A stretch of 64,000 bases of DNA from an uncultured Gammaproteobacteria bacterium (GTDB lineage: Bacteria > Patescibacteriota > Microgenomatia > PFEM01 > DATLAM01), in NCBI GenBank assembly GCA_964566925.1, contig CAZMIZ010000001.1, positions 7,248 through 71,247 of the forward strand, read 5' to 3'. Numbering within the stretch: position 1 is the stretch's first letter; each line of letters starts with the position of its first letter. The notes under the pieces were generated by a model, which worked only from the letters and a program-made list of their open reading frames with translations, was not told the DNA's origin and did not search any database. This document shows positions 17,454 to 27,328 of this stretch, piece by piece. Position numbers and translations under genes: made by a program.

Positions 17454-18275
17454 ATGCCCTTAGCTACAATCGAAATCCCACGTAATCTATATGATACCTT
17501 ACCAAAGGAAAGCAGAGAAGAATCTGCTGTGGCTGTATGTAATCAAGCCCTTGATTCTACCCTTCAAGGGCTGAAAATTCCGGACCTCGAAGATCGTGAA
17601 TATAGAGTAGCTTTAGTTGGTGACGATGAAAAGTCAAGGTTATCAATCGAATTCACCTGCGGAACCGATGAATACGAAACAGGAGAAATCTTTAATCCAG
17701 CAGAAGAACAGATCCACGCCACTGGTGTAGAAGTCCAGGCTAGCGCTCAAAGATCTGAATTCAACGTGGCGGAAACCGAAATAATATCATGGCGTGATAC
17801 CACATTTATTGAACGAGAGGAAGGTACCATAGAACCAACCGAATCGCTATCGCCAGGATGTGGAGACAAAGTAAGGAAAGCCAAAGTAACCCTCACGCTG
17901 TCGCCTGACGCAACCGAACGTATTCTTACTAGTCAAGCTGGTAGAGAACTCGAGTCAAGTAAATCCCCCGAGCTCGATGCAGCTAATACCATTGGGGAGG
18001 GGTTATCACTTTTAATTGCTGAAGCCCTCAGGCTGCCCGAAAATACTGAAAGATCTGTGAAGGTTTCACTTCCTCTTCTTGCTGAAACCCATATTGCCGT
18101 TGATGTTGATTTAGAGGTATCCGGAACCATTTCATCAGAAGACCGTTTGCTTCTAGCGAAAGCGATTGAGAGTCATCTTAATTCAAACGAACCCACCAGC
18201 CAGGGTATTGGTACCATTTGGGTTCGGCAAGGACAGCCAGCCAAAGATACTATTACCTCCGAAGATACAAAATAA
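17454..18275 (+). CDS. Hypothetical acidic protein
   Basis: 273 aa, Glu/Asp/Ser/Thr-rich. GC looks higher than its flanks. No known motif. Confidence 0.45.
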   Translation: MPLATIEIPRNLYDTLPKESREESAVAVCNQALDSTLQGLKIPDLEDREYRVALVGDDEKSRLSIEFTCGTDEYETGEIFNPAEEQIHATGVEVQASAQRSEFNVAETEIISWRDTTFIEREEGTIEPTESLSPGCGDKVRKAKVTLTLSPDATERILTSQAGRELESSKSPELDAANTIGEGLSLLIAEALRLPENTERSVKVSLPLLAETHIAVDVDLEVSGTISSEDRLLLAKAIESHLNSNEPTSQGIGTIWVRQGQPAKDTITSEDTK

Positions 18276-18336
18276 TCCTGAACGGCGCTAATTTAAATAA
18301 AAGATTCATCCAGGGACGGGATGTTAAGAAAAAAAC

Positions 18337-18651
18337 TCAAGCGAGAGCCAAAATCAGGATAAAAAGAAAAGTAAAGAAAGCCAGCCACCCAGCTGTAAAA
18401 ATCACCAACTTAAGCGCCTCAATCGTCTTCTTCTTCTCCCAAAATAAGATAAAAGGATAACCTAAAACAATTAAGGCGGAAATAATGGCCGAGACCACGA
18501 AAAGAACTAAAAACATGGCTGGAATTAAAAAGGTAAAGGGAGGCCCAAAAAGATTCTCTCCCTGCCAAAATAAAAGCCCAATTAGGCTACAATAAATCAC
18601 CAAACCAGTAGCCTGTAAAAAGGCAATAAAGCCAAGAGAAAATTTCCTCAT
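18337..18651 (-). CDS. Small membrane protein (3 TM)
   Basis: 104 aa, almost entirely hydrophobic helices. Confidence 0.35.
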   Translation of the reverse strand: MRKFSLGFIAFLQATGLVIYCSLIGLLFWQGENLFGPPFTFLIPAMFLVLFVVSAIISALIVLGYPFILFWEKKKTIEALKLVIFTAGWLAFFTFLFILILALA

Positions 18652-18757
18652 TTTAAAATCCCCTCTTTTTTATTATAACACCTAAAGGAATCTCCCTGCT
18701 TTTTCTTTTCTGGAGCCCTGATTTTTGTTTGACCTATCCGATTCAAAGAAAAATGAA

Positions 18758-19045
18758 TTATTGGGGTCTTTCGGGTCTTGAATGAAAATCTCTGGGTTGT
18801 TTTGGCCGAGCTTCGTTAACAATGATTTTTCTTCCGCCAAAATCATTACCATTAAGCATTTCAATCGCTTTTTTCGCTTCTTCTTCGCTGCTCATTTCCA
18901 CAAAACCAAAACCTTTTGAACGACCGGAATACCGATCGGTGATCACTGTTGCGCTTGTCACCTTGCCTGCTTGGGCAAAATGCTCTCCTAGCTGCTCGTC
19001 GGTAACACCATAATCGAGATTACCAACATAGAGTTTAGTACTCAA
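18758..19045 (-). CDS. RRM-domain RNA-binding protein
   Basis: RNP-2 LYVGNL and RNP-1 KGFGFVEM. TTG start preceded by AGGAGGTG with 8-nt spacing. Confidence 0.8.
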   Translation of the reverse strand: MSTKLYVGNLDYGVTDEQLGEHFAQAGKVTSATVITDRYSGRSKGFGFVEMSSEEEAKKAIEMLNGNDFGGRKIIVNEARPKQPRDFHSRPERPQ

Positions 19046-19200
19046 GTTTATTCACCTCCTTTTCTTTTGCATAAATTTAAAAATTTTGGGAGCTTCTTTG
19101 GATGCCGTCTGAAGTCCGTCTGGAGACCAAGAGAAAGCTACCTCTCATACTGATAAACAATCATAACAAAAAACCTAATAAAAGTAAAGCCCTTTTATCT

Positions 19201-20307
19201 TCAACTTTTCCTGCCTACCCCTAAATAAGCGGCTAGAAAAGTAGTTAATGGAACCGCGGCGATCAAACCAATGCTTCCCACTAGGGTGCGAATTATTTCT
19301 TCGGTAATAATCTCGTAGTTAATTACCTGGGAAAATGGCAAGGGATTGTTAATAAATAACAAAAGTAAAGGGAGGGCGGCCCCGGTGTAGACTAAGACCA
19401 GGGTGTTGACCATTGAAGCAATGTGGTCCTGGCCAACATTCATCGCTCGTAAAAATAATTCCTTAAATTTTATCTTCGGATTCGCCTCTCTTAATTGTTG
19501 AACAATCGCCGATTGGGCCACAGTAATATCATCCAAAACCCCTAAAGCGCCAATAATAATACCTGCCAAAACAAGACCCTTGATATTAATGGCTCCGGGT
19601 CGATCTGATTGTAAAAAGCCGGCCTCTTCTGAAGCAAAGCCAGTTAGTCGGGTCACCTCAACAAAATATTTGGCTAAAAAGCCGGTAATTACCAAAGCCG
19701 CTAAAGTGCCTAACATGGCCACAGCCGTCTTTTGATTCAATCCATGAGAAAGATAAAAAGTTAAGGGAATGATCGCCAAAGAACCGAGGATGGCGATCAT
19801 GACTGGATCGCGGCCGGAATTAATCTGGGGTAAGATGAAAAGAAAAATCACCAAAAAAGAAATTCCTAAACCGATAATTGAAGTGGCCCCCCGCCAACGG
19901 CCAATCACCACCGCCAAAATCACAAAAAGCAAAAACAACCAAAAAAGGTATTTTCTCCTGATAAGCTCGGTCAGATAAAAAATCTCTTCTCCTTCAAGGC
20001 CAAGGCTTTTACTGATTAAAACTTCATCACCAACCCGGTATTTGGGTAAGCCAATAATAGGAATATCACCCACTTCAACGACGATCTCTCTATCTTTAAT
20101 TGAACCGGCAGTAATCAAGATTTTTAACTTCTGATAAAGATTTTGTTCGCCTTCTTGGGTGATGACATCTTCTTCGAGAATTTCAATGATCCGACCCTCG
20201 AGAATCTCTTCCTTGGGGGCCTGGTCTATTTCTTGACCCAAAACCTTTGAAGAAAAAAGAGAAAGGAAAATCAAAGGCAAAAATAGAAAAAGTAGTTTTT
20301 TAATCAT
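19201..20307 (-). CDS. YibE/F-family membrane protein
   Basis: Signal/TM anchor, extracytoplasmic N-domain, then a multi-TM YibE/F-like core. Overlaps the upstream gene by 4 nt. Confidence 0.5.
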   Translation of the reverse strand: MIKKLLFLFLPLIFLSLFSSKVLGQEIDQAPKEEILEGRIIEILEEDVITQEGEQNLYQKLKILITAGSIKDREIVVEVGDIPIIGLPKYRVGDEVLISKSLGLEGEEIFYLTELIRRKYLFWLFLLFVILAVVIGRWRGATSIIGLGISFLVIFLFILPQINSGRDPVMIAILGSLAIIPLTFYLSHGLNQKTAVAMLGTLAALVITGFLAKYFVEVTRLTGFASEEAGFLQSDRPGAINIKGLVLAGIIIGALGVLDDITVAQSAIVQQLREANPKIKFKELFLRAMNVGQDHIASMVNTLVLVYTGAALPLLLLFINNPLPFSQVINYEIITEEIIRTLVGSIGLIAAVPLTTFLAAYLGVGRKS

Positions 20308-21221
20308 CCCAAAATCTTTCTGAGCTTATTGTAAATGTCTTCTATTTCTTTTTTAGCGGAGAGGTTGGTTTTCATGATTGGCGTTAAGCCAGCAATGGCC
20401 TGAAAGATTTTTTGATCATAGCCTATTTTGCCTAAAACCTTTCCTTTAGCCCACTTTTCCATTTTAGCACTTTCTTTTTGGTTAAGATCCCACTTATTGA
20501 TTACCACCCGATAGGCAATCTTAAAATGTTTAACAATCGCTAAAACCCGCTTTAAATCGGAAAAACCAGAGGGGGTCGGTTCGGTCACTAAAACAACAAA
20601 ATCGACGCCGTTAAGAGCAGCAATAACGGGACAACCGATCCCTGCTGGGGAGTCAATAATCATCATTTGGTGGTTAAATTGTTCGGCTTTTTCTTTAATT
20701 AAATCAACGATTTTGCCTGAACCGGTTTGGCCCGGATGAAGCTGGGCGGAAACTAAAGGAAAACCGTGGACATTTTTTTTAATTTTGATTTCGCCGTTAA
20801 TAATCGGCTTCATCTTAATCGCTTTAGCCGGACAAACTACTTCGCAAGCACCACAACCTTCGCAAAAATATTCATTGAGAACTGGCTTTTTCTTCTTTAA
20901 ATTGAGAGCGGAAAAGGCGCAAATTTCAACACATCGACCGCAGCCAGTACACTTTTTCAGATCGATAATCGGTTTTTCGTTGGTAGAAACTTTTTTAATC
21001 TTATCCCAATGCTCACCTTCTTCCCCCTTTGCCGAGGCTTCGAGGGACAAGCCCAACCATAAATGAAGATTGGGGGCATCAACGTCAGCATCAACGGCAA
21101 CCACCTTTGCTTTTCGTGTAAAAAGCATTGCCAAAGAAGAAGCGAGCATGCTTTTCCCAACTCCACCCTTTCCAGAAGCAATAGCAACCTTTAACTTTAC
21201 TCTTTCCATTTTTAATATCAC
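20304..21221 (-). CDS. MinD/ParA-superfamily P-loop ATPase with inserted 2x[4Fe-4S] ferredoxin domain (COG1149-like)
   Basis: Deviant Walker A ASGKGGVGKS. Two CxxCxxCxxxC motifs: CTGCGRCVEIC and CEGCGACEVVC. Confidence 0.75.
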   Translation of the reverse strand: MILKMERVKLKVAIASGKGGVGKSMLASSLAMLFTRKAKVVAVDADVDAPNLHLWLGLSLEASAKGEEGEHWDKIKKVSTNEKPIIDLKKCTGCGRCVEICAFSALNLKKKKPVLNEYFCEGCGACEVVCPAKAIKMKPIINGEIKIKKNVHGFPLVSAQLHPGQTGSGKIVDLIKEKAEQFNHQMMIIDSPAGIGCPVIAALNGVDFVVLVTEPTPSGFSDLKRVLAIVKHFKIAYRVVINKWDLNQKESAKMEKWAKGKVLGKIGYDQKIFQAIAGLTPIMKTNLSAKKEIEDIYNKLRKILG

Positions 21222-21228
21222 ATTTCGT

Positions 21229-22416
21229 CTATACCCAACCTAAAATCATGGCTATCCCTAGACCAAAAATAATTAAACCAGCGACCAAATGAAGATAGCG
21301 GATGTTTTTTTCTTTCCAATCGGCAACATTCTCAACCGTAGCCAAGCCTAGATAACAAACAGCGACAATGACCAGCATTGGCAAAATGAAAATCAGGTTA
21401 TACAACAGTAACCAAGGAATGGTTTGCCAAAAAGAAAGTGAACAAAGAACACCTCCACAAATCACATAAGGACCAATCGTACAGGGGAGTAAAAAAACAG
21501 TCACTAAAGCCCCGACAACAAAGGCCCACCAAGGGTTGGTGACTTTGAAAAACAAGCTTTGAGCCTTAGGACGAAGGAACATGGGCATTTCTGTTAGAAA
21601 ACCACCGGGTTGATAATAAATGAAGTCTTTGATGTTTAAAACTCCTAAAACAAGCGCCACCATCCCTAAAGCTTTATAAAGCCAAAAACGAATATTGGCT
21701 AGTGCTTGAATTATCTGAAAAAACTTAATAATCGCCAAACCATAAAGAAAATACATAATCAGAACCGCGCTCGAGAAAGCCAAGCCAGCTACTAAAACAT
21801 TGCGTTTCTTTTTCGGACCTAAGGTGATAATGGCTAAAAGCATTAAGACTAAAACCGCTAAAGCGCAGGGATTAACGGCATCAACGGCCGCCAAAGAAAT
21901 TACCTTAGCCAAAGTCAATTCTCGGGGAACCATCTCCTCAACCATCTCGATCTTCTCATTTAATAGCTCGGGCCAAATCTTGGGCTTTCCTGATAGAGAA
22001 GCAAAATCAAGCTCTTCAAAATCAACAGTGGTTCCATCAATTAAAGGACAAGGATTGCTTCCCTTTTCAATTAAGCTTCTTACCCCATCAATAATCGGCC
22101 TATCACCAACCAAATATTTATCCTGGCCAAAAATAATCAAAGGAATACCTAATCCAGAATCGTAAACCTGATTATACTCATAAATCAATGGGGCATTTTC
22201 CTGATCTTGATAGATTTCGTATTCAATAATAACCAGTTGGGGATACTCTTTAAGGAGTTGATCAAAAATAAAGGGATCAACTTGGGCACAATGAGGACAG
22301 CCGATCCCCGTAAAATAGACAGCACAGACAGTCTGATCGCCTTCCGCTAAAGATGGAGACGAAAAAAGATTGAGTAGAAGAACCACTAAGACAACAATAA
22401 TTCCCAGTTTCTTCAT
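21229..22416 (-). CDS. Fusion of an extracytoplasmic thioredoxin-like domain (CPHC) with a CcdA/DsbD-type transmembrane thiol-disulfide transporter
   Basis: Signal peptide. GIGCPHCAQVDPF is a CxxC thioredoxin fold. The TM domain carries the conserved Cys pair AVNPCALAVL and LLPCTIGPY. Confidence 0.65.
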   Translation of the reverse strand: MKKLGIIVVLVVLLLNLFSSPSLAEGDQTVCAVYFTGIGCPHCAQVDPFIFDQLLKEYPQLVIIEYEIYQDQENAPLIYEYNQVYDSGLGIPLIIFGQDKYLVGDRPIIDGVRSLIEKGSNPCPLIDGTTVDFEELDFASLSGKPKIWPELLNEKIEMVEEMVPRELTLAKVISLAAVDAVNPCALAVLVLMLLAIITLGPKKKRNVLVAGLAFSSAVLIMYFLYGLAIIKFFQIIQALANIRFWLYKALGMVALVLGVLNIKDFIYYQPGGFLTEMPMFLRPKAQSLFFKVTNPWWAFVVGALVTVFLLPCTIGPYVICGGVLCSLSFWQTIPWLLLYNLIFILPMLVIVAVCYLGLATVENVADWKEKNIRYLHLVAGLIIFGLGIAMILGWV

Positions 22417-23237
22417 AGATTATTTACTTCCTTTAACCTGCCTTTTGAATAAACTTTGGCCAGCTCCTTAGAATAAGGTATTTTATATTTGATTGCAACT
22501 TGGGATCGCTTAGCAATCCTTTCAACTAACTCGCTTTTCCCTAGATCAGCTTGATTAAGAACAATTTTAGCAGGAACTTTAAGAGTTTTTAATAGCTTTA
22601 AAATTAACTCCAAATCATGAGCGCCGAGAGGAGTCGGTTCGGTGACAGCATAAGCTAAATCGACGCCTATCAAAGCCCGGATAACACCACAATGGATACC
22701 AACCGAAGTATCAATCAAGAGATAATCAGCTTTATTTTTTCTGACTAATTTTTGAGCATATTCCCTCATTCTGGTCACAATCGGTCCGGTTTCATCGACA
22801 ACCCCGACAGAACGACCGGTCACTAAATAAAAATTCTCGTCAATCTGGTTCTTAAAGATTTCCCCAATCACCTTTTTCTCGGCTTTAATGGCTTTTTGAG
22901 GACAAAGACGCCAGCACAAACTGCATCCAGAGCAAAGTTCGTGAAGGAAAAGAGGAAACCTTCCTGGTGCTTGAAAGATGGCATTTGAGCGGCAGTTTTT
23001 AACACATAAGCCACATTGACTACATTTCTGTTTATCAAGAAAAGGAAATTGAGCAAAAATTATTTCAGCCGACTGGCCTAATTTTTGTCCCAACAACAAA
23101 TGATCGTTCGGGCATTCCACATCAGCATCAGCCAAAACAACCTTTTTCCCTTGACTTCTTAGCTTATTGGCTAAAAGAATGGCGACAGTCGATTTACCTG
23201 TACCGCCTTTTCCACCGGTGATAGCGATGGTCTTCAT
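22413..23237 (-). CDS. MinD/ParA-superfamily P-loop ATPase with inserted 2x[4Fe-4S] ferredoxin domain (paralog of 20304..21221)
   Basis: Deviant Walker A GGKGGTGKS. Two CxxCxxCxxxC motifs: CSQCGLCVKNC and CSGCSLCWRLC. Confidence 0.75.
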   Translation of the reverse strand: MKTIAITGGKGGTGKSTVAILLANKLRSQGKKVVLADADVECPNDHLLLGQKLGQSAEIIFAQFPFLDKQKCSQCGLCVKNCRSNAIFQAPGRFPLFLHELCSGCSLCWRLCPQKAIKAEKKVIGEIFKNQIDENFYLVTGRSVGVVDETGPIVTRMREYAQKLVRKNKADYLLIDTSVGIHCGVIRALIGVDLAYAVTEPTPLGAHDLELILKLLKTLKVPAKIVLNQADLGKSELVERIAKRSQVAIKYKIPYSKELAKVYSKGRLKEVNNL

Positions 23238-24478
23238 GTCTTCTCCTTAGTTGGTTTCGATAATATTTCTAATCCTCCTTTAATAAAACTATCAATAATT
23301 GTTTTTGCCTTCTCACCTTGAGCTTGATAGATATCAAACAAATTCTCTCGTAGGGCATGGAAAGAGATTTCCCCTATTTCTTTAGCAATGAGAATTTCGC
23401 TTTTTTGTTTAGCCAGAAGTTTGGCAGCTGCCAAGCCAGCTCTCATCTTTTGATCTTTGAAAGGATTATCAAGTAAATAATAGCCTTTAATTTTTTCGCC
23501 CTCAAGGTTGACCAAAAGAAAAGCCGGTGCTCGACCAAATTGGTCAGCTACCGGAGAAGATAGCCCGTTTTTAGTCTTTATTGGAATCGCCAGATGGCGA
23601 TAATCGCTTTTAAAAGGTTCTATGTGAATTGAGAATGAATCAACTTGGGGCACTTCTTTTTTAATCGCTCTTTCAACCTTCTCGGCAATTTCGTGAGCCC
23701 GCCTGACATCAATGAATTTCCTAACTCCCACCTTGGTCTCACCAAAAATAAAAGGGCCTGCCCTTCTTAGACGTAAATCAAAAAACTCTTCAATTCCCGG
23801 CACGGATTTGATCGCTTTAACAACCTTTTTCTCAACTGCCTTACTGGGACTAACATCCATAAGGGCAAAAAAAGAGTCTTTGGCGCTCGTTAGGCCAATT
23901 TTAAAGATAAGAAAAGAGATGACGATGGTAATCACTCCCTCAAGGTAGGGAGTTTGGTAATAGGCTGCTAAAATGCCTACAAAAACTGCCGTTGAGGAAA
24001 AAAGATGAGTTCTATTTTCTTTACCCATGGCCACTAAACTTTGAGCATTAATTTCCTCGCCCACTTTAATTTCATAATTGCCAAAAAAGAACAAAACTAA
24101 GGCGTCCAGCAAAGAAACCGCCAAGGCCAAGAAAGGAATTTCAATTGGGGAAGAAAAGAAAAGTCGGGCATAGCCATTGACAAACATCTCCCAAGCAGCC
24201 AGAAGAATTAGAATAGAGACAATCGCTGCTCCAAGGTTTTCCGCTTTATAATAACCATAAGGAAAGCGCTCGTCCGCTTTTTTTTGAGCAACTTTTAAAC
24301 CAAACCAAGAAGTAAAAATTGATAAAATATCCGAGCCACTATGGATCGCGTCGGAAATAAGAACAATACTGCCTGATAAAAAACCGATCACCGCTTTAGC
24401 CGTCGCCAAAAAGCCTTCCAAAAAAATGGCAACGGTTGCTAGCTTCTCTCCTTTTTTTAAATCTTCTTTTTGTGTCAT
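23234..24478 (-). CDS. Cation diffusion facilitator (CDF) transporter fused to a C-terminal NifX/NafY-like (Nitro_FeMo-Co, PF02579) domain
   Basis: CDF TM core (HSGSDILSIFTSWFGLKVAQKKADERFPYGYYKAENLGA). C-terminal LAIPIKTKNGLSSPVADQFGRAPAFLLVNLEGEKIKG matches the dinitrogenase FeMo-cofactor-binding fold. Confidence 0.7.
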   Translation of the reverse strand: MTQKEDLKKGEKLATVAIFLEGFLATAKAVIGFLSGSIVLISDAIHSGSDILSIFTSWFGLKVAQKKADERFPYGYYKAENLGAAIVSILILLAAWEMFVNGYARLFFSSPIEIPFLALAVSLLDALVLFFFGNYEIKVGEEINAQSLVAMGKENRTHLFSSTAVFVGILAAYYQTPYLEGVITIVISFLIFKIGLTSAKDSFFALMDVSPSKAVEKKVVKAIKSVPGIEEFFDLRLRRAGPFIFGETKVGVRKFIDVRRAHEIAEKVERAIKKEVPQVDSFSIHIEPFKSDYRHLAIPIKTKNGLSSPVADQFGRAPAFLLVNLEGEKIKGYYLLDNPFKDQKMRAGLAAAKLLAKQKSEILIAKEIGEISFHALRENLFDIYQAQGEKAKTIIDSFIKGGLEILSKPTKEKT

Positions 24479-24553
24479 AAGTTAATTAAGCTCGGTTCAG
24501 TCACCGGCGAATCCAGATTTATTTTAAGCAAAGATTGCTTTTTTATTTCTTCT

Positions 24554-24976
24554 TTATCGTCTACCTCTTCCCCAACCTCCCCCTCGACTTAGACCTTCTC
24601 CCGCCCCTTGTCCTTTATTCATACCAGCAGAAGGGCCTGCCATTTCATTTTCTTTCAGCTTTCCTTCTTTATATTGCTCTAGCACATCTTTAACAGTCAT
24701 GTCAGAAACACCACCAAAAGTCTTAATTCCACTAGAATTGAGAACATTAATGGCATTCGGGCCGAAATTACCGGCAATAACCGCCCCGACCCCTTTATCA
24801 ACCACTAACTGAGCGGCAGAAATACCAGCTCCTCGGGGCGCCTGCCCGGCTGTGTTTTTAATCACTTTAAATTCCTTGGTTTCGCTATTAATAATCAAAA
24901 AATAAGGACACCGTCCAAATCGAAGGTCAACTAAGCTATCGAAATCTTTGCCTGATGAGGCAATAGCGATTTTCAC
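24554..24976 (-). CDS. NifX/NifB-C-terminal-like (Nitro_FeMo-Co family) protein with Gly/Arg-rich tail
   Basis: MKIAIASSGKDFDSLVDLRFGRCPYFLI...GVGAVIAGNFGPNAINVL is the canonical PF02579 pattern. The C-terminus is GQGAGEGLSRGGGWGRGRR. Confidence 0.75.
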   Translation of the reverse strand: MKIAIASSGKDFDSLVDLRFGRCPYFLIINSETKEFKVIKNTAGQAPRGAGISAAQLVVDKGVGAVIAGNFGPNAINVLNSSGIKTFGGVSDMTVKDVLEQYKEGKLKENEMAGPSAGMNKGQGAGEGLSRGGGWGRGRR

Positions 24977-25005
24977 TCAATCACCCCCCTTCCACTCTAT
25001 TTAAA

Positions 25006-25506
25006 TTATCTCTTCCTAATCATCGGCGAGCCGCATTTCGGACATTTAGTCTGGTAACAGGGTATACCGGCTTGATGGGATACCTCATTTTTACACTCGG
25101 GATTAGTACAAAGACAGGCCCCTCCCGGACCAGCGGCAAATGGGCCACCCATTCTCCCTCGGCCGGCCCCCCGACCAGCGCCTCGACCCCGACCAGTACC
25201 TCGACCAAATCCTGCTGGCATAACTGTCTCACCTCCTTTTATTTTGATCGCTTTGCCTAAAACCAATGCCTCCGCAATTTTCTTATGAGCTTCAGTCAAA
25301 ATCCGTTGGAAAGTACTTTGAGAAATTTTCATTATTTTAGCAGATTCAATCTGCCCCAAGCCTTCTAAATCGGCCAACCTAATTGCCTCTAATTCATCAA
25401 GTGCTAAAATCGCCTCCCTTAAAAAGTCCGAGGGAATTCCACGAGGCCTAAAATAATCGGCTTCTGGTTCAGAACCTATCCGTCTTGGTTTCTTTTGCCT
25501 AGTCAT
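25006..25506 (-). CDS. DUF134 (UPF0251) predicted DNA-binding protein with RGG/GRG-repeat linker and C-terminal zinc ribbon
   Basis: Sigma-70 region-4-like HTH (LEAIRLADLEGLGQIESAKIMKISQSTFQRIL). A GRGTGRGRGAGRGAGRGR repeat follows. The C-terminal motif is CxxxxC...CxxC. Confidence 0.6.
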   Translation of the reverse strand: MTRQKKPRRIGSEPEADYFRPRGIPSDFLREAILALDELEAIRLADLEGLGQIESAKIMKISQSTFQRILTEAHKKIAEALVLGKAIKIKGGETVMPAGFGRGTGRGRGAGRGAGRGRMGGPFAAGPGGACLCTNPECKNEVSHQAGIPCYQTKCPKCGSPMIRKR

Positions 25507-25535
25507 GATTTAAATCCAATTATGAATATATACCC

Positions 25536-25564
25536 ATTATAGGGAACTAGGGGACATTTGTCAA
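25536..25564 (-). promoter_or_regulatory. Near-consensus sigma70 promoter (TTGACA-17-TATAAT) for the DUF134-led cluster
   Basis: Minus-strand TTGACA at 25564..25559 and TATAAT at 25541..25536. The ATG at 25506 is about 23 nt downstream of the predicted TSS. Confidence 0.55.
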
Positions 25565-25569
25565 GAGGG

Positions 25570-26016
25570 TTATTTTTTCACTAAAAGCCAGCTCTTTTTC
25601 TCAAAAGTGGGCGGATGGAAAATACTAAACTCCCCTTTTAATTTCTTGCCGGAAAGTTTGAACTTGATCGAATTATTAGCCCTCTCAATAATTTCTAGTT
25701 TTCCTTTATCCCAAATTTCAACCTTCCCCGCTCCGTATTGACCTTCCGGGATAACGCCCTTAAAAGAGGCGTACTCTAAAGGGTGATCTTCAACCTGAAT
25801 GGCTAAGCGCTTTTCACCTGGTTTTTGAGGCGGACCTTTGGGGACAGCCCAGCTCTTTAAAACCCCTTCTGTCTCTAGTCGAAAATCGAAATGGTGGTGA
25901 CTAGCCCAGTGCTCATGAACCACAAAAATGGGGAGTTTTTTGGTTTTCGAAACTTTTCCTTTAGGCTCAGAAGTCTTACCAAAGTCTCGTTTTTTTTGAT
26001 ACCTTTTTAGTTTCAC
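25570..26016 (-). CDS. Stand-alone LigD-type 3'-phosphoesterase domain protein (LigD_N / PE domain)
   Basis: FVVHEHWASHHHFDFRLE...GVLKSWAVPKGP is the signature of the NHEJ ligase D phosphoesterase module. Confidence 0.75.
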   Translation of the reverse strand: MKLKRYQKKRDFGKTSEPKGKVSKTKKLPIFVVHEHWASHHHFDFRLETEGVLKSWAVPKGPPQKPGEKRLAIQVEDHPLEYASFKGVIPEGQYGAGKVEIWDKGKLEIIERANNSIKFKLSGKKLKGEFSIFHPPTFEKKSWLLVKK

Positions 26017-26654
26017 ACTTTAGTTTTTAGAAGTTCTACCTCATCTCTTTCAATCGACTCTCCAGATATCTTTGTGAGGCCAGTATTAACGTTTGCCTGA
26101 ATCTGGTTCTCAATCCGATAACAAGCAGCTATCAGTTCATCCAGGGTATCTAACTTACGATATATGTCCAGTCTCGGTAAAGCTTCATTAAGTCGCTCTT
26201 TCAAAGATAAAATTCCGAAGGGTCCAACTCTTAAGTCCGCGTAAAATAAGATCTTCGCCTCCCAATTGCTTGATTCTGCCATTTTGAGAGCATTAGAAAA
26301 AGTTTTAGATTTAACAAGAAGGCTCATTCTTGAATTAACCCCTAATTCTTCAAGCATTTTTAAAGTAGCTTGATGGTCATCGGTCCCATATTGATCGGTA
26401 ATGTCTTCCTGGACCTTTAGCCAAAAATTAACCCTTCCCTTTTCCTTACCAAGAAATTTCGGATATTTCTTAAGATCAAATTTGACAATATTCCCTAAAT
26501 CGTGAAGAAGGGCGCTCTTTTTGATCAAATCATGGTCGATCTTTGGCCCAACCCAATGATCGGTGATAAAAAGAGCCACTTTAGTAACCCGGAGTAAATG
26601 CTCTTGTAAATTAGGGGGAAGCTTAAATCGTTGATAAATCTTTTGAACGGTCAT
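26013..26654 (-). CDS. HD-domain protein
   Basis: LLHDLGN motif. Overlaps the downstream LigD-PE gene by 4 nt. Confidence 0.5.
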   Translation of the reverse strand: MTVQKIYQRFKLPPNLQEHLLRVTKVALFITDHWVGPKIDHDLIKKSALLHDLGNIVKFDLKKYPKFLGKEKGRVNFWLKVQEDITDQYGTDDHQATLKMLEELGVNSRMSLLVKSKTFSNALKMAESSNWEAKILFYADLRVGPFGILSLKERLNEALPRLDIYRKLDTLDELIAACYRIENQIQANVNTGLTKISGESIERDEVELLKTKV

Positions 26655-27328
26655 CAGCGAACATAATACCCAGAAGTTCTCAGCTGTTTGATTATCTCTT
26701 TAAGGTTGCCGCTTATTTGATTAAAAAGACTTGCCCCTTCTGCTTGAGAGGCCTGGGTTTTACCTTCCACGCTAAAATAAAAGTCCCAAATCTGGATACC
26801 GGAACCAGCAATTGGTGATTCGGCGAAAAAAGTTCCTTCCAGATCATAAACGCTACCTATTTGCCAACCAGGGCAATTATAATCACAATTACCCGGTTCT
26901 CTGACACACAAAGATTCTTCTTCTGGACCGAAAAGGGGCAGGTTGCGGGGCTGGTCTGAAAGAAAAGGTAAATCTGCATCTGAGACAATCAAGTTCTTCT
27001 TTAAAGGGCAACCACAACAAGGGTCATTTTTCGGGCAACTAAGACGTTCGCAAACAACCTTATCGTCAGAAACTCTGCCCCTAACTACCAATTGGCGATT
27101 GGCATACTTTTTCTTGTCAGCCAGAACCTCGCTCGGTTTAACGACTTCTGATTCGGGAGTGGCCACCACCCTGGATTTTAAAGCCTCCATTTTTTCTTTG
27201 AAAGGCAGGTGTTCGTAAGGAATTGTTTCGAACAAAAAAATGCCAGCCACAACTGCCAATACCGGCAAAACAATAGTAAAGAGGACAATTAAACCTATTA
27301 GGATGTCTTGATTCCCTTTTTTCTTCAT
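26654..27328 (-). CDS. Hypothetical membrane-anchored, Cys-rich extracytoplasmic protein
   Basis: N-terminal TM anchor. Cys-rich cluster: VVCERLSCPKNDPCCGCPL and GNCDYNCPGW. Confidence 0.35.
   Translation of the reverse strand: MKKKGNQDILIGLIVLFTIVLPVLAVVAGIFLFETIPYEHLPFKEKMEALKSRVVATPESEVVKPSEVLADKKKYANRQLVVRGRVSDDKVVCERLSCPKNDPCCGCPLKKNLIVSDADLPFLSDQPRNLPLFGPEEESLCVREPGNCDYNCPGWQIGSVYDLEGTFFAESPIAGSGIQIWDFYFSVEGKTQASQAEGASLFNQISGNLKEIIKQLRTSGYYVR

Follow-up and report, generated by a model that had tools for sequence, protein, structure and literature searches.

The subject of this analysis is a 64,000-nt stretch of contig CAZMIZ010000001.1 (assembly GCA_964566925.1), referred to below as the window, and within it a cluster of genes that brings together a DUF134 regulator, NifX-family proteins, iron-sulfur ATPases and three kinds of membrane protein. 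ORF calling resolves the cluster into seven head-to-tail open reading frames (ORFs), all on the minus strand, in window 19201-25506. The seven genes are arranged as one operon, and in our judgement there is about an even chance that it acts as an autoregulated regulon for the handling of iron and sulfide. The genes, in the order in which they follow their promoter, and the control elements that precede them are as follows.

25559..25564, minus strand: -35 hexamer TTGACA of a promoter matching the consensus at 12/12 positions
25536..25541, minus strand: -10 hexamer TATAAT, with a 17-nt spacer
25522..25537, minus strand: 16-bp palindromic operator ATGGGTATATATTCAT (family consensus ATGAAY-N4-RTTCAT)
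25006..25506, minus strand: DUF134/UPF0251 protein, 166 amino acids, first gene (Pfam DUF134, 81.9 bits, 5.2e-23)
24554..24976, minus strand: stand-alone NifX-family protein, 140 amino acids (Pfam Nitro_FeMo-Co, 84.2 bits, 7.8e-24)
23234..24478, minus strand: fusion of a cation diffusion facilitator (CDF) with a NifX domain, CDF::NifX (Pfam and NCBIfam)
22413..23237, minus strand: MinD/ParA-class P-loop ATPase with an inserted 2x[4Fe-4S] ferredoxin domain (MinD-Fer), paralogue 1
21229..22416, minus strand: thioredoxin (Trx)::membrane protein, Trx::GAP (alignment of relatives, profiles and structural model)
20304..21221, minus strand: MinD/ParA-class P-loop ATPase with an inserted 2x[4Fe-4S] ferredoxin domain (MinD-Fer), paralogue 2
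19201..20307, minus strand: YibE/F-family membrane protein, 368 amino acids, last gene (Pfam YibE_F)

The junctions between the genes are short. DUF134 and NifX are separated by 29 nt and NifX and CDF::NifX by 75 nt, 4-nt overlaps join CDF::NifX to MinD-Fer 1, MinD-Fer 1 to Trx::GAP and MinD-Fer 2 to YibE/F, and 7 nt lie between Trx::GAP and MinD-Fer 2. These calls agree with a first-pass annotation of the same DNA, which had described seven co-directional minus-strand genes with 4-nt overlaps or short spacers, except that the span it gave (20304-25564) omits the YibE/F gene (19201-20307). Its assignments of DUF134, NifX-like, CDF::NifX and YibE/F proteins and of the ferredoxin inserts were upheld by Pfam searches, in which the flanking genes proved to be unrelated to the operon.

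Homologues of the Trx::GAP protein number 1724, from sources named Patescibacteria and Woesearchaeota, and when one genome of each species was scanned, relatives turned up in 427 GTDB species, the records of which are labelled as candidate phyla radiation (CPR) lineages, DPANN archaea and a few Proteobacteria-labelled metagenome-assembled genomes (MAGs). Judged by its named homologues, the window probably comes from a CPR bacterium of Microgenomates type. The best 80 species-level loci, chosen only for Trx::GAP and called the anchored loci here, had their ORFs called and searched with profiles built from the window and the first matches, and neighbours were counted within 10 kb. DUF134 occurs in 37/80 of them, on the same strand in 36 of the 37, NifX-like proteins and two-ferredoxin MinD-Fer ATPases in 31/80 each, DUF5320 in 26/80, ZIP transporters in 21/80, CDF proteins in 18/80 (12 of the 18 fused to NifX), ArsP-like permeases in 9/80 and YibE/F, the window apart, in 6/80; at least one of these partner families is present in 56/80. 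The YibE/F gene directly follows Trx::GAP in L016, L047, L055 and L075 and comes one gene further on in L007, and in the metagenome loci L115, L129 and L133 it follows DUF134 or Trx::GAP. Other recurrent neighbours of Trx::GAP are an ABC ATPase (13 loci) and a family-4 uracil-DNA glycosylase (12 loci), and within 5 kb there are thioredoxin genes in 9 loci, a further Trx-like family in 5 and cysteine desulfurase with NifU_N in 5. A lack of co-conservation had been named beforehand as grounds for giving up the cluster; the genes are in fact co-conserved, usually on one strand, across the 80 species-level loci. Nor is the combination as unusual as the first-pass annotation held it to be, for CDF::NifX, Trx::GAP and YibE/F recur with DUF134, NifX and MinD-Fer in many loci labelled CPR or DPANN. 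Chance juxtaposition of the genes was ruled out by the census of loci together with control stretches.

The composition of the cluster varies. Locus L007 repeats the identical seven-gene order at 64-77% identity and L075 has all seven families in a different order, whereas L006, at the same chromosomal position after a LigD_N gene, has only DUF5320, DUF134 and Trx::GAP. Because L006 and similar loci carry only these three genes, the unit must be regarded as modular. It was also observed that L006, L007, L008, L010, L016 and others are labelled 'uncultured Gammaproteobacteria' or 'Bathyarchaeia', while their clusters are 64-77% identical to that of the window and they share its bacterial promoter and LigD_N synteny; the labels of those records look unreliable.

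The promoter had been described in the first-pass annotation as a near-consensus TTGACA-17-TATAAT sequence at 25536-25564. That description was right, the match being in fact perfect (12/12), but the conserved operator lying over the promoter was missed, and it is the operator that is rated here as the most informative feature of the locus. The promoter is the sole perfect TTGACA-17-TATAAT sequence in the window, and allowing one mismatch gives 4 matches where 0.34 are expected; its -35 hexamer lies 5 nt past the stop codon of the upstream LigD_N gene. An alignment of the regions upstream of related clusters revealed the palindrome. The last 2 nt of the -10 box and the expected start of transcription fall within it, 15 nt separate its end from the DUF134 ATG, and the window holds no other match at up to 3 mismatches. 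A 23-nt string, TATAATGGGTATATATTCATAAT, is identical in six loci (the window, L001, L006, L007, L010 and L016), the proteins of which are just 63-74% identical to those of the window. No Rfam family matches window 18000-27000, and a riboswitch explanation was dropped on the strength of that scan.

The palindrome stands upstream of the first cluster gene in 24 loci, that is in 23/80 anchored loci and the window. All copies of ATGAATA-N2-TATTCAT with 0-1 mismatches in the 1.33 Mb of the anchored loci lie just upstream of DUF5320 or DUF134 as the first gene of the array, in bacteria and archaea alike, the one apparent exception being a pair in L011, where an automatic DUF5320 ORF call is over-long and encloses both copies. 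The archaeal palindrome follows a TATA box and abuts the start codon, and in several archaeal loci the operator is present twice, at a distance of about 24 bp. A second operator class, ATGAAC-N4-GTTCAT, is found at the head of clusters in Aenigmatarchaeota-type loci, between a TTTATAAA box immediately before it and the adjoining start codon, and also in higher-GC MAGs labelled Proteobacteria or Bdellovibrionales. An unbiased test was provided by an exact 16-mer search of a metagenome collection, made without gene information, that returned 80 stretches. In 40 of these the palindrome is situated between -120 and +207 nt from the start of a DUF5320 (27) or DUF134 (13) gene, on contigs with a GC content of 0.26 to 0.58. 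The 39 stretches without either gene (207 kb) hold just 2 members of any partner family; some of their sites are inside ORFs and two precede ArsR-family genes. Lying over the -10 box and start site in bacteria and just behind the TATA box in archaea, the operator is so placed as to suggest repression.

The obvious candidate for the protein that binds this operator is the product of the first gene. DUF134 (PF02001) is a large family, with 4158 50%-identity clusters at E<=1e-3, and the window protein scores 81.9 bits against a cut-off of 27. Its residues 1-99 form a sigma-70-region-4-like helix-turn-helix (HTH) domain with the motif ISQSTF and weak matches to sigma-70 region 4 and extracytoplasmic function (ECF) sigma factors, after which come an Arg/Gly (RG)-rich linker and a tail of six Cys and one His (CxCx4C...H...PC...CxxC). 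The earlier assignment to DUF134 was thus correct, but made no mention of the linker or the tail. The six-Cys tail is kept in 14/41 DUF134 proteins of the loci and also occurs as stand-alone proteins of about 75 amino acids; no Pfam family matched the tail, and a Pfam search of the stand-alone proteins gave noise-level zinc-ribbon matches only. The tail was also considered as a fused DUF5320, but the DUF5320 HMM gives about 3 bits, a compositional match only, and it is not called a fusion. DUF134 comes in several forms: short beside a DUF5320 gene, long with RG linker and Cys tail as in the window, and fused to NifX (L045, L050, L054, P0339 and P0357). Single ORFs in L118 and L120 match both DUF5320 and NifX profiles, these being profile matches not confirmed with Pfam. 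The linker of DUF134 has a Gly/Arg/aromatic, net-cationic composition in common with the N-terminal half of DUF5320 and with the stand-alone NifX protein's tail. Two side observations concern this family. P0289, P0296 and P0303 are free proteins of 74-94 amino acids that consist only of an RG-rich stretch and the six-Cys/one-His motif and match no Pfam family; such proteins may be the counterpart of the small Cys-rich iron-sulfur protein of ORP operons. P0293 (259 amino acids) has two tandem DUF134 domains before a Cys-rich tail, which fits a DUF134 dimer on the palindrome.

An important consideration in linking DUF134 to the operator is whether the two vary together. In the anchored loci, which were picked without regard to operators, residue x of the HTH motif [IV]S-x-[PST]TF co-varies with operator base 6/11: x is Gln with ATGAAT..ATTCAT in 21 loci, including the window, and Arg with ATGAAC..GTTCAT in 10 loci, of which 4 are archaeal and 6 bacterial. 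None of the 31 loci is discordant (Fisher's test, 2.3e-8, uncorrected for phylogeny), L022 (ISRGTF, operator ATGTGCATATGCACAG) also fits the Arg/C-G class, and the Arg class arises in unrelated lineages. In protein-DNA recognition Gln commonly reads adenine and Arg commonly guanine. Because the helix residue co-varies with the operator base and does so with no exceptions, there is strong sequence evidence that DUF134 reads the palindrome directly, and the window DUF134 is proposed to be both autoregulator and sensor. Neither a function nor a binding site is recorded for DUF134 in the literature searched, which likewise holds nothing functional on DUF5320, COG1149, COG1342 or UPF0251; both the operator and the specificity residue of DUF134 accordingly seem to be new. 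The closest parallel in layout is with the autoregulated operators of ArsR/SmtB-type regulators (CzrA/SmtB), which are of the 12-2-12 type. As in these, a core of TGAA-N6-TTCA covers the -10 box, or follows it closely, in the promoter of the regulator's own gene; unlike these, the regulator is a sigma-70-region-4-like HTH protein, not a winged-helix protein, and the site is also found beside archaeal TATA boxes.

The stand-alone NifX-family protein finds its best solved relative in MTH1175 (3e-22) and also matches ORP of Desulfovibrio gigas (2wfb, 4e-17, residues 2-108). Its C-terminal tail, EMAGPSAGMNKGQGAGEGLSRGGGWGRGRR, has 30 residues, 37% of them Gly and 17% Arg/Lys, with 5 basic against 2 acidic residues and one Trp, and similar cationic tails occur in 12/40 stand-alone NifX proteins of the loci. 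IssA of Pyrococcus furiosus combines a NifX-family domain with a cationic Gly/Arg/aromatic tail and stores iron and sulfide as thioferrate (PMC5524996), and Vaccaro et al. placed MTH1175 in the IssA clade, leaving a mesophilic 'IssX' clade uncharacterised (PMC5524996). The window protein resembles IssA in its IPR003731/PF02579 domain and its net-positive Gly/Arg/aromatic tail, a link that runs via MTH1175; it differs in that its tail is without the proline-rich part and its gene belongs to an operon with a regulator, ATPases and transporters. The protein is accordingly proposed, from its homology, as an ORP/IssA-like metal-sulfur binding protein. A second stand-alone NifX subtype, without the cationic tail and with a short conserved Cys-x(1-3)-His end, was also noted (L020:4111-4470, L065:9058-9387, L079:2557-2958), and many clusters carry both.

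Both ATPases have a CbiA/ParA P-loop and two Fer4 motifs in Pfam and are 35% identical to each other. The Walker A motif of both is of the deviant kind. Paralogue 1 has the Walker A motif GGKGGTGKS and the ferredoxin motifs CSQCGLCVKNC and CSGCSLCWRLC, and paralogue 2 has GKGGVGKS with CTGCGRCVEIC and CEGCGACEVVC. The MinD equivalog models TIGR01968 and TIGR01969 give them 52-67 bits, below cut-offs of about 200-213, and the ferredoxin insert is absent from MinD structures. The eight ferredoxin Cys and a ninth (Cys197 of paralogue 2, in GxGCPVI) are 100% conserved in 53 relatives. In these 53 MinD-ferredoxin ATPases the ninth Cys sits in a D-x3-G-x2-C-P-V-I motif, a position that may correspond to the switch II region, and it could ligate a metal or cluster at the dimer interface.

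The first-pass annotation had called the neighbourhood of DUF134, NifX and MinD-Fer recurrent and uncharacterised. It is indeed recurrent, but its core matches the ORP complex (PMC6345978) and the IssA-type NifX (PMC5524996). The ORP complex comprises Orp8 (ORP), the MinD-like Orp3 and Orp4 with two [4Fe-4S] motifs each, a small iron-sulfur protein and MrpORP (PMC6345978, PMC8359166, PMC3897727). Like the complex of Desulfovibrio vulgaris Hildenborough (Orp3, Orp4, Orp5, Orp8, Orp9/MrpORP), the operon has a small ORP-homologous NifX-family protein and, like Orp3/Orp4, two paralogous two-ferredoxin ATPases, the latter being likened by their motifs. Both systems consist of clustered genes, both are found only in anaerobes and both use NifX as a fusion module, in MrpORP on the one hand and in CDF::NifX and DUF134::NifX on the other. 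The differences are equally clear. There is no Mrp/NBP35 gene in the operon, where the NCBIfam MrpORP model, which has a cut-off of 450, finds only partial matches (22-49 bits). In Desulfovibrio the orp genes are under sigma-54/OrpR control and respond to the redox potential of the medium via an iron-sulfur sensor (PMC8359166), and in place of those divergent sigma-54/OrpR/IHF operons there is here a single operon running in one direction from a sigma-70 consensus promoter, which is overlapped by a DUF134 operator. The membrane parts, CDF::NifX, Trx::GAP and YibE/F (ZIP or ArsP elsewhere), have not been described for ORP.

The CDF::NifX protein matches Cation_efflux (140.4 bits), ZT_dimer (61.4 bits) and, at residues 307-399, Nitro_FeMo-Co (44.4 bits), and scores 218.5 against a cut-off of 82 with TIGR01297. 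Its AlphaFold model (predicted local distance difference test, pLDDT, 79.8) superposes on YiiP (E 1.8e-12, TMt 0.76) and on ZnT structures, and the tail of the model on the NifX-like PH0822 (TM 0.85); the Pfam match and this superposition confirm the CDF with a C-terminal NifX domain that had been claimed from the sequence. The three-domain arrangement is kept in all of the best 120 homologues, and no description of such a fusion was found in the literature searchable. Among the NCBIfam equivalogs MamM, MamB, MntE and FieF come nearest, but neither they nor ZitB reach their cut-offs. Residues D43, H46, D50, E154, H158 and S162 are invariant in 20 sequences. As in YiiP/FieF, MamB/MamM and MntE, the HxxxD of transmembrane helix (TM) 2 and the His/Glu ligands of the cytoplasmic domain are conserved, but TM5 has HxxxS in place of HxxxD. 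The ligand residues do not decide metal specificity.

The Trx::GAP protein consists of a signal peptide, an extracytoplasmic thioredoxin-fold domain with a CPHC motif and a six-helix membrane domain of the GAP/SfLAP-DsbD_2 superfamily. The signal peptide, the CPHC motif (C40, C43), Cys184 (NPCALAVL) and Cys312 (LPCTIGPY) are invariant in 18 relatives, and the model (pLDDT 71.7) has six long helices with breaks at both membrane Cys. The best PDB sequence matches of the N-terminal domain are ScsC/DsbA-like (E 0.003), and the domain also matches thioredoxin folds. The membrane domain of the window protein reaches no Pfam threshold (SfLAP 25-28 bits against a cut-off of 35), while SfLAP is matched by 7/8 relatives and DsbD_2 by 4/8 (best E 3.9e-7), P0107 being annotated DsbD_2. 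A profile search of PDB sequences with the membrane-domain alignment gave nothing even at E 10, and hhalign of the two halves of the domain gave no signal of a 3+3 repeat. The protein resembles CcdA, DsbD and ScsB in its six predicted TM helices with invariant Pro-Cys cysteines in the first and fourth, and resembles these proteins taken with their partners ResA, CcmG, DsbD-gamma and ScsC in its outward Trx-fold domain with CxxC, genes for cytoplasmic thioredoxin being often near. It differs from CcdA/DsbD in that no model is matched at threshold, the best match being GAP/SfLAP, and in that the Trx domain is N-terminal with a DsbA-type CPHC. The DipZ of mycobacteria is a Trx-CcdA fusion of the same group. 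The earlier reading of a thioredoxin::CcdA protein therefore stands as regards the CPHC Trx fusion and the two membrane Cys, but CcdA holds only at superfamily level.

A number of observations concern the form and surroundings of Trx::GAP in other loci. The Trx and membrane domains appear as two adjacent ORFs in L035, L042, L045, L050, L054, L056 and L061, and the same split is seen in L063, L070, L072, L073, L078, L079 and L081, while longer one-piece forms (about 470 amino acids) have an additional domain in the middle, separating the two. An ORF of about 156 amino acids, with an N-terminal membrane helix bearing a CGCP motif, a basic C-terminal half and no Pfam match, adjoins Trx::GAP in 11 loci, most of them DPANN-labelled (L027, L030, L051, L061, L067, L068, L073, L076, L077, L078 and L081; for example L067:3518-3988). 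The last protein of the operon matches PF07907 YibE_F with 264.8 bits against a cut-off of 27.2 (9.1e-79) over the full profile.

The analysis directly establishes the genes with their domains and domain fusions, their conserved linkage, the operator, the way in which it co-varies with DUF134, and homology to ORP and MTH1175; from these we infer the repression, the nature of the signal, an iron/sulfide substrate, the directions of transport and the path of the electrons. The seven genes would be transcribed as one operon from the consensus sigma-70 promoter, the operator covering its -10 box and start. A DUF134 dimer would occupy the palindrome and most likely repress its own operon; the signal is probably sensed via the RG-rich/six-Cys tail of DUF134, and elsewhere via the DUF5320 protein or a fused NifX domain, occupancy of the palindrome changing as the Cys/RG tail or the DUF5320 and NifX partners bind or lose a metal-sulfur ligand. 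The structural genes would handle iron and sulfide under anoxic conditions, iron with sulfide being the best-supported candidate substrate. The IssA/ORP-like NifX protein may hold a non-covalent metal-sulfur species in the cytoplasm, and the two Orp3/Orp4-like iron-sulfur ATPases may act on or with the species so bound. CDF::NifX would export surplus metal, the candidates being Fe(II), Mn and Zn, and its nearest NCBIfam models, although below cut-off, hint at a CDF of the Fe/Mn type. The YibE/F permease would move substrate across the membrane, being replaced or joined elsewhere by ZIP or ArsP-like permeases. Trx::GAP, finally, would pass reducing equivalents from cytoplasmic thioredoxin via the two membrane Cys to the outward CPHC domain. 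The suggestion in the first-pass annotation of metal/Fe-S trafficking or a redox relay is a reasonable one in this light.

Several observations weigh against this interpretation. Within 10 kb of Trx::GAP, 24/80 loci have no member of any partner family. ZIP importer and CDF exporter occur together in L013, L051 and L079, which is odd for the simple homeostasis of one ion, and Zn is the metal more usually associated with both families. The CDF has a site A of unusual HD-HS composition (TM2 H46-xxx-D50, TM5 H158-xxx-S162, not HxxxD), the tail of the stand-alone NifX protein has 30 residues against 70 in IssA, and the Trx::GAP membrane domain found no match to solved CcdA in profile or Foldseek searches, which recovered the Trx domain only. 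The co-variation test ignores phylogeny. To these must be added the known ligand of ORP and the presence of the palindrome before genes of another regulator family, which are taken up with the alternatives to which they belong.

The first of these alternatives retains the same regulation and replaces iron with another thiophilic metal or thiometallate (Mo/W-Cu-S, or Zn, Cu or Cd), in which case the operon would serve detoxification or homeostasis and the CPHC domain would act like ScsC in copper tolerance. ORP binds the Mo-Cu-S cluster [S2MoS2CuS2MoS2]3- and not an Fe-S cluster (PMC6345978), the best PDB matches of the Trx domain are ScsC, 'suppression of copper sensitivity', and copper/metal resistance proteins (E 0.003-0.005), ZIP, CDF and ArsP-like permeases are common partners, a metal-type ABC ATPase is near in 13 loci and the core of the palindrome is that of operators before ArsR-family metal-sensor genes. 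However, the models nearest to the CDF are the Fe/Mn-type MamM, MamB, MntE and FieF, the NifX protein is nearer to the MTH1175/IssA type than to ORP and has an IssA-style cationic tail, cysteine desulfurase and NifU_N recur as neighbours, and no genes for molybdate or tungstate transport, or for the cofactors, turned up in the loci. A metal other than iron is thus possible but unlikely.

Rather less probable is a regulon for thiol-redox stress in the envelope, in which a Cys or iron-sulfur cluster of DUF134 would sense redox state or oxygen in the manner of OrpR and Trx::GAP, as a reductase or oxidase of surface proteins, would be the main output with the metal genes as passengers. CPHC is the active-site motif of DsbA, and thioredoxin genes are frequent neighbours. 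The minimal unit in close relatives (L006, L010, L032 and L060) consists of operator, DUF5320, DUF134 and Trx::GAP, to which L001 and L016 add YibE/F, and the control of the Desulfovibrio orp genes by redox potential (PMC8359166) provides a precedent. Against it, DUF134 and the operator head arrays without Trx::GAP in the available sequence, for example in L099, L112, L125 and L133, and the fusion of NifX to both regulator and exporter points to a bound ligand and not to pure redox sensing.

It might also be argued that the palindrome is bound by an ArsR/SmtB-type or other repressor encoded elsewhere, DUF134 having some other role such as RNA or G-quadruplex binding via its RG-rich region; RG-rich motifs of DUF134 and DUF5320 have been flagged as possible quadruplex binders (PMC7565180). 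The exact palindrome ATGAATATATATTCAT does lie 31 nt upstream of ArsR-family (HTH_5) genes at L123:8145-8160 and L157:2533-2548, after a TTGACA/-10 pair in each of these low-GC contigs, and the palindrome appears not to be exclusive to DUF134, two unrelated regulator families using one operator core. Yet no ArsR homologue was found in the 64-kb window, DUF134 and DUF5320 are the sole genes common to all bacterial and archaeal operator contexts, and the Gln/Arg residue of DUF134 tracks operator position 6/11 in 31 loci with no exception, so that a repressor of another family is improbable. The idea that the MinD-like ATPases and their partners position the septum or another structure, with the transporters as unrelated neighbours, recalls the putative role of ORP proteins in cell division and septum positioning and the polar location of MrpORP (PMC6345978, PMC3897727, PMC4672049) and suits ATPases of the MinD/ParA class, but it is very improbable given MinD equivalog scores of 52-67 bits against more than 200, the absence of ftsZ, minC and minE from the recurrent neighbour families (no systematic test was made for division genes) and the tight same-strand linkage, in bacteria and archaea alike, to a regulator, NifX carriers and metal transporters.

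The system is, then, an ORP/IssA-type system extended by membrane components, a finding that is real and more general than the first-pass annotation held. DUF134 (PF02001/UPF0251), an old family of unknown function, gains a testable proposed role as a repressor reading ATGAAY-N4-RTTCAT with a predicted specificity-switch residue, and ORP/IssA-type proteins are linked to defined membrane transporters and a transmembrane thiol relay. Genome-reduced CPR bacteria and DPANN archaea have the module in common, and since its operator comes with it, these small genomes have evidently kept it, or lineages have passed it to one another, as a unit. The iron and sulfide interpretation also supplies candidates for an aqueous iron sulfide transporter. 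When Methanococcus voltae grows on pyrite, two IssA homologues, encoded in the region Mvol_0689-0693, increase together with a redox-active disulfide protein, and the FeS(aq) transporter of anaerobes is stated to be unknown (PMC8516115). A speculative extension, which we hold to be doubtful, is that DUF134 with DUF5320 or the RG/Cys tail and NifX forms a cross-domain sensor of thioferrate or FeS(aq), and that the regulon is a route by which anaerobes take up, store and vent iron sulfide. The cationic Gly/Arg/aromatic segments of the regulator, DUF5320 and the IssA-like protein would then bind the same anionic Fe-S species, the permeases would be FeS(aq) transporters, the CPHC domain would be a reductase mobilising extracellular iron sulfide or polysulfide and the iron-sulfur ATPases would be ATP-driven donors of electrons or clusters.

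The genes on either side of the operon remain to be described. The operon is preceded by a stand-alone LigD 3'-phosphoesterase domain, an HD protein and UppP/BacA and followed by an RRM protein and a nitroreductase. The LigD_N protein (148 amino acids, 25570-26016), directly upstream of the operon, overlaps the HD-domain gene (26013-26654) by 4 nt; there is no ligase or polymerase domain near it, and a LigD_N gene also precedes the cluster in L006 and L007. Window 26654-27328 encodes a 224-amino-acid protein with an N-terminal membrane helix and many Cys (CxxxxC, CCGC, CxxxC) that matches no Pfam family. On the other side, 155 nt downstream of the operon, is the gene for a 95-amino-acid RRM-type RNA-binding protein (18758-19045), with a promoter-like site of its own at 19188-19160 that includes an extended -10.

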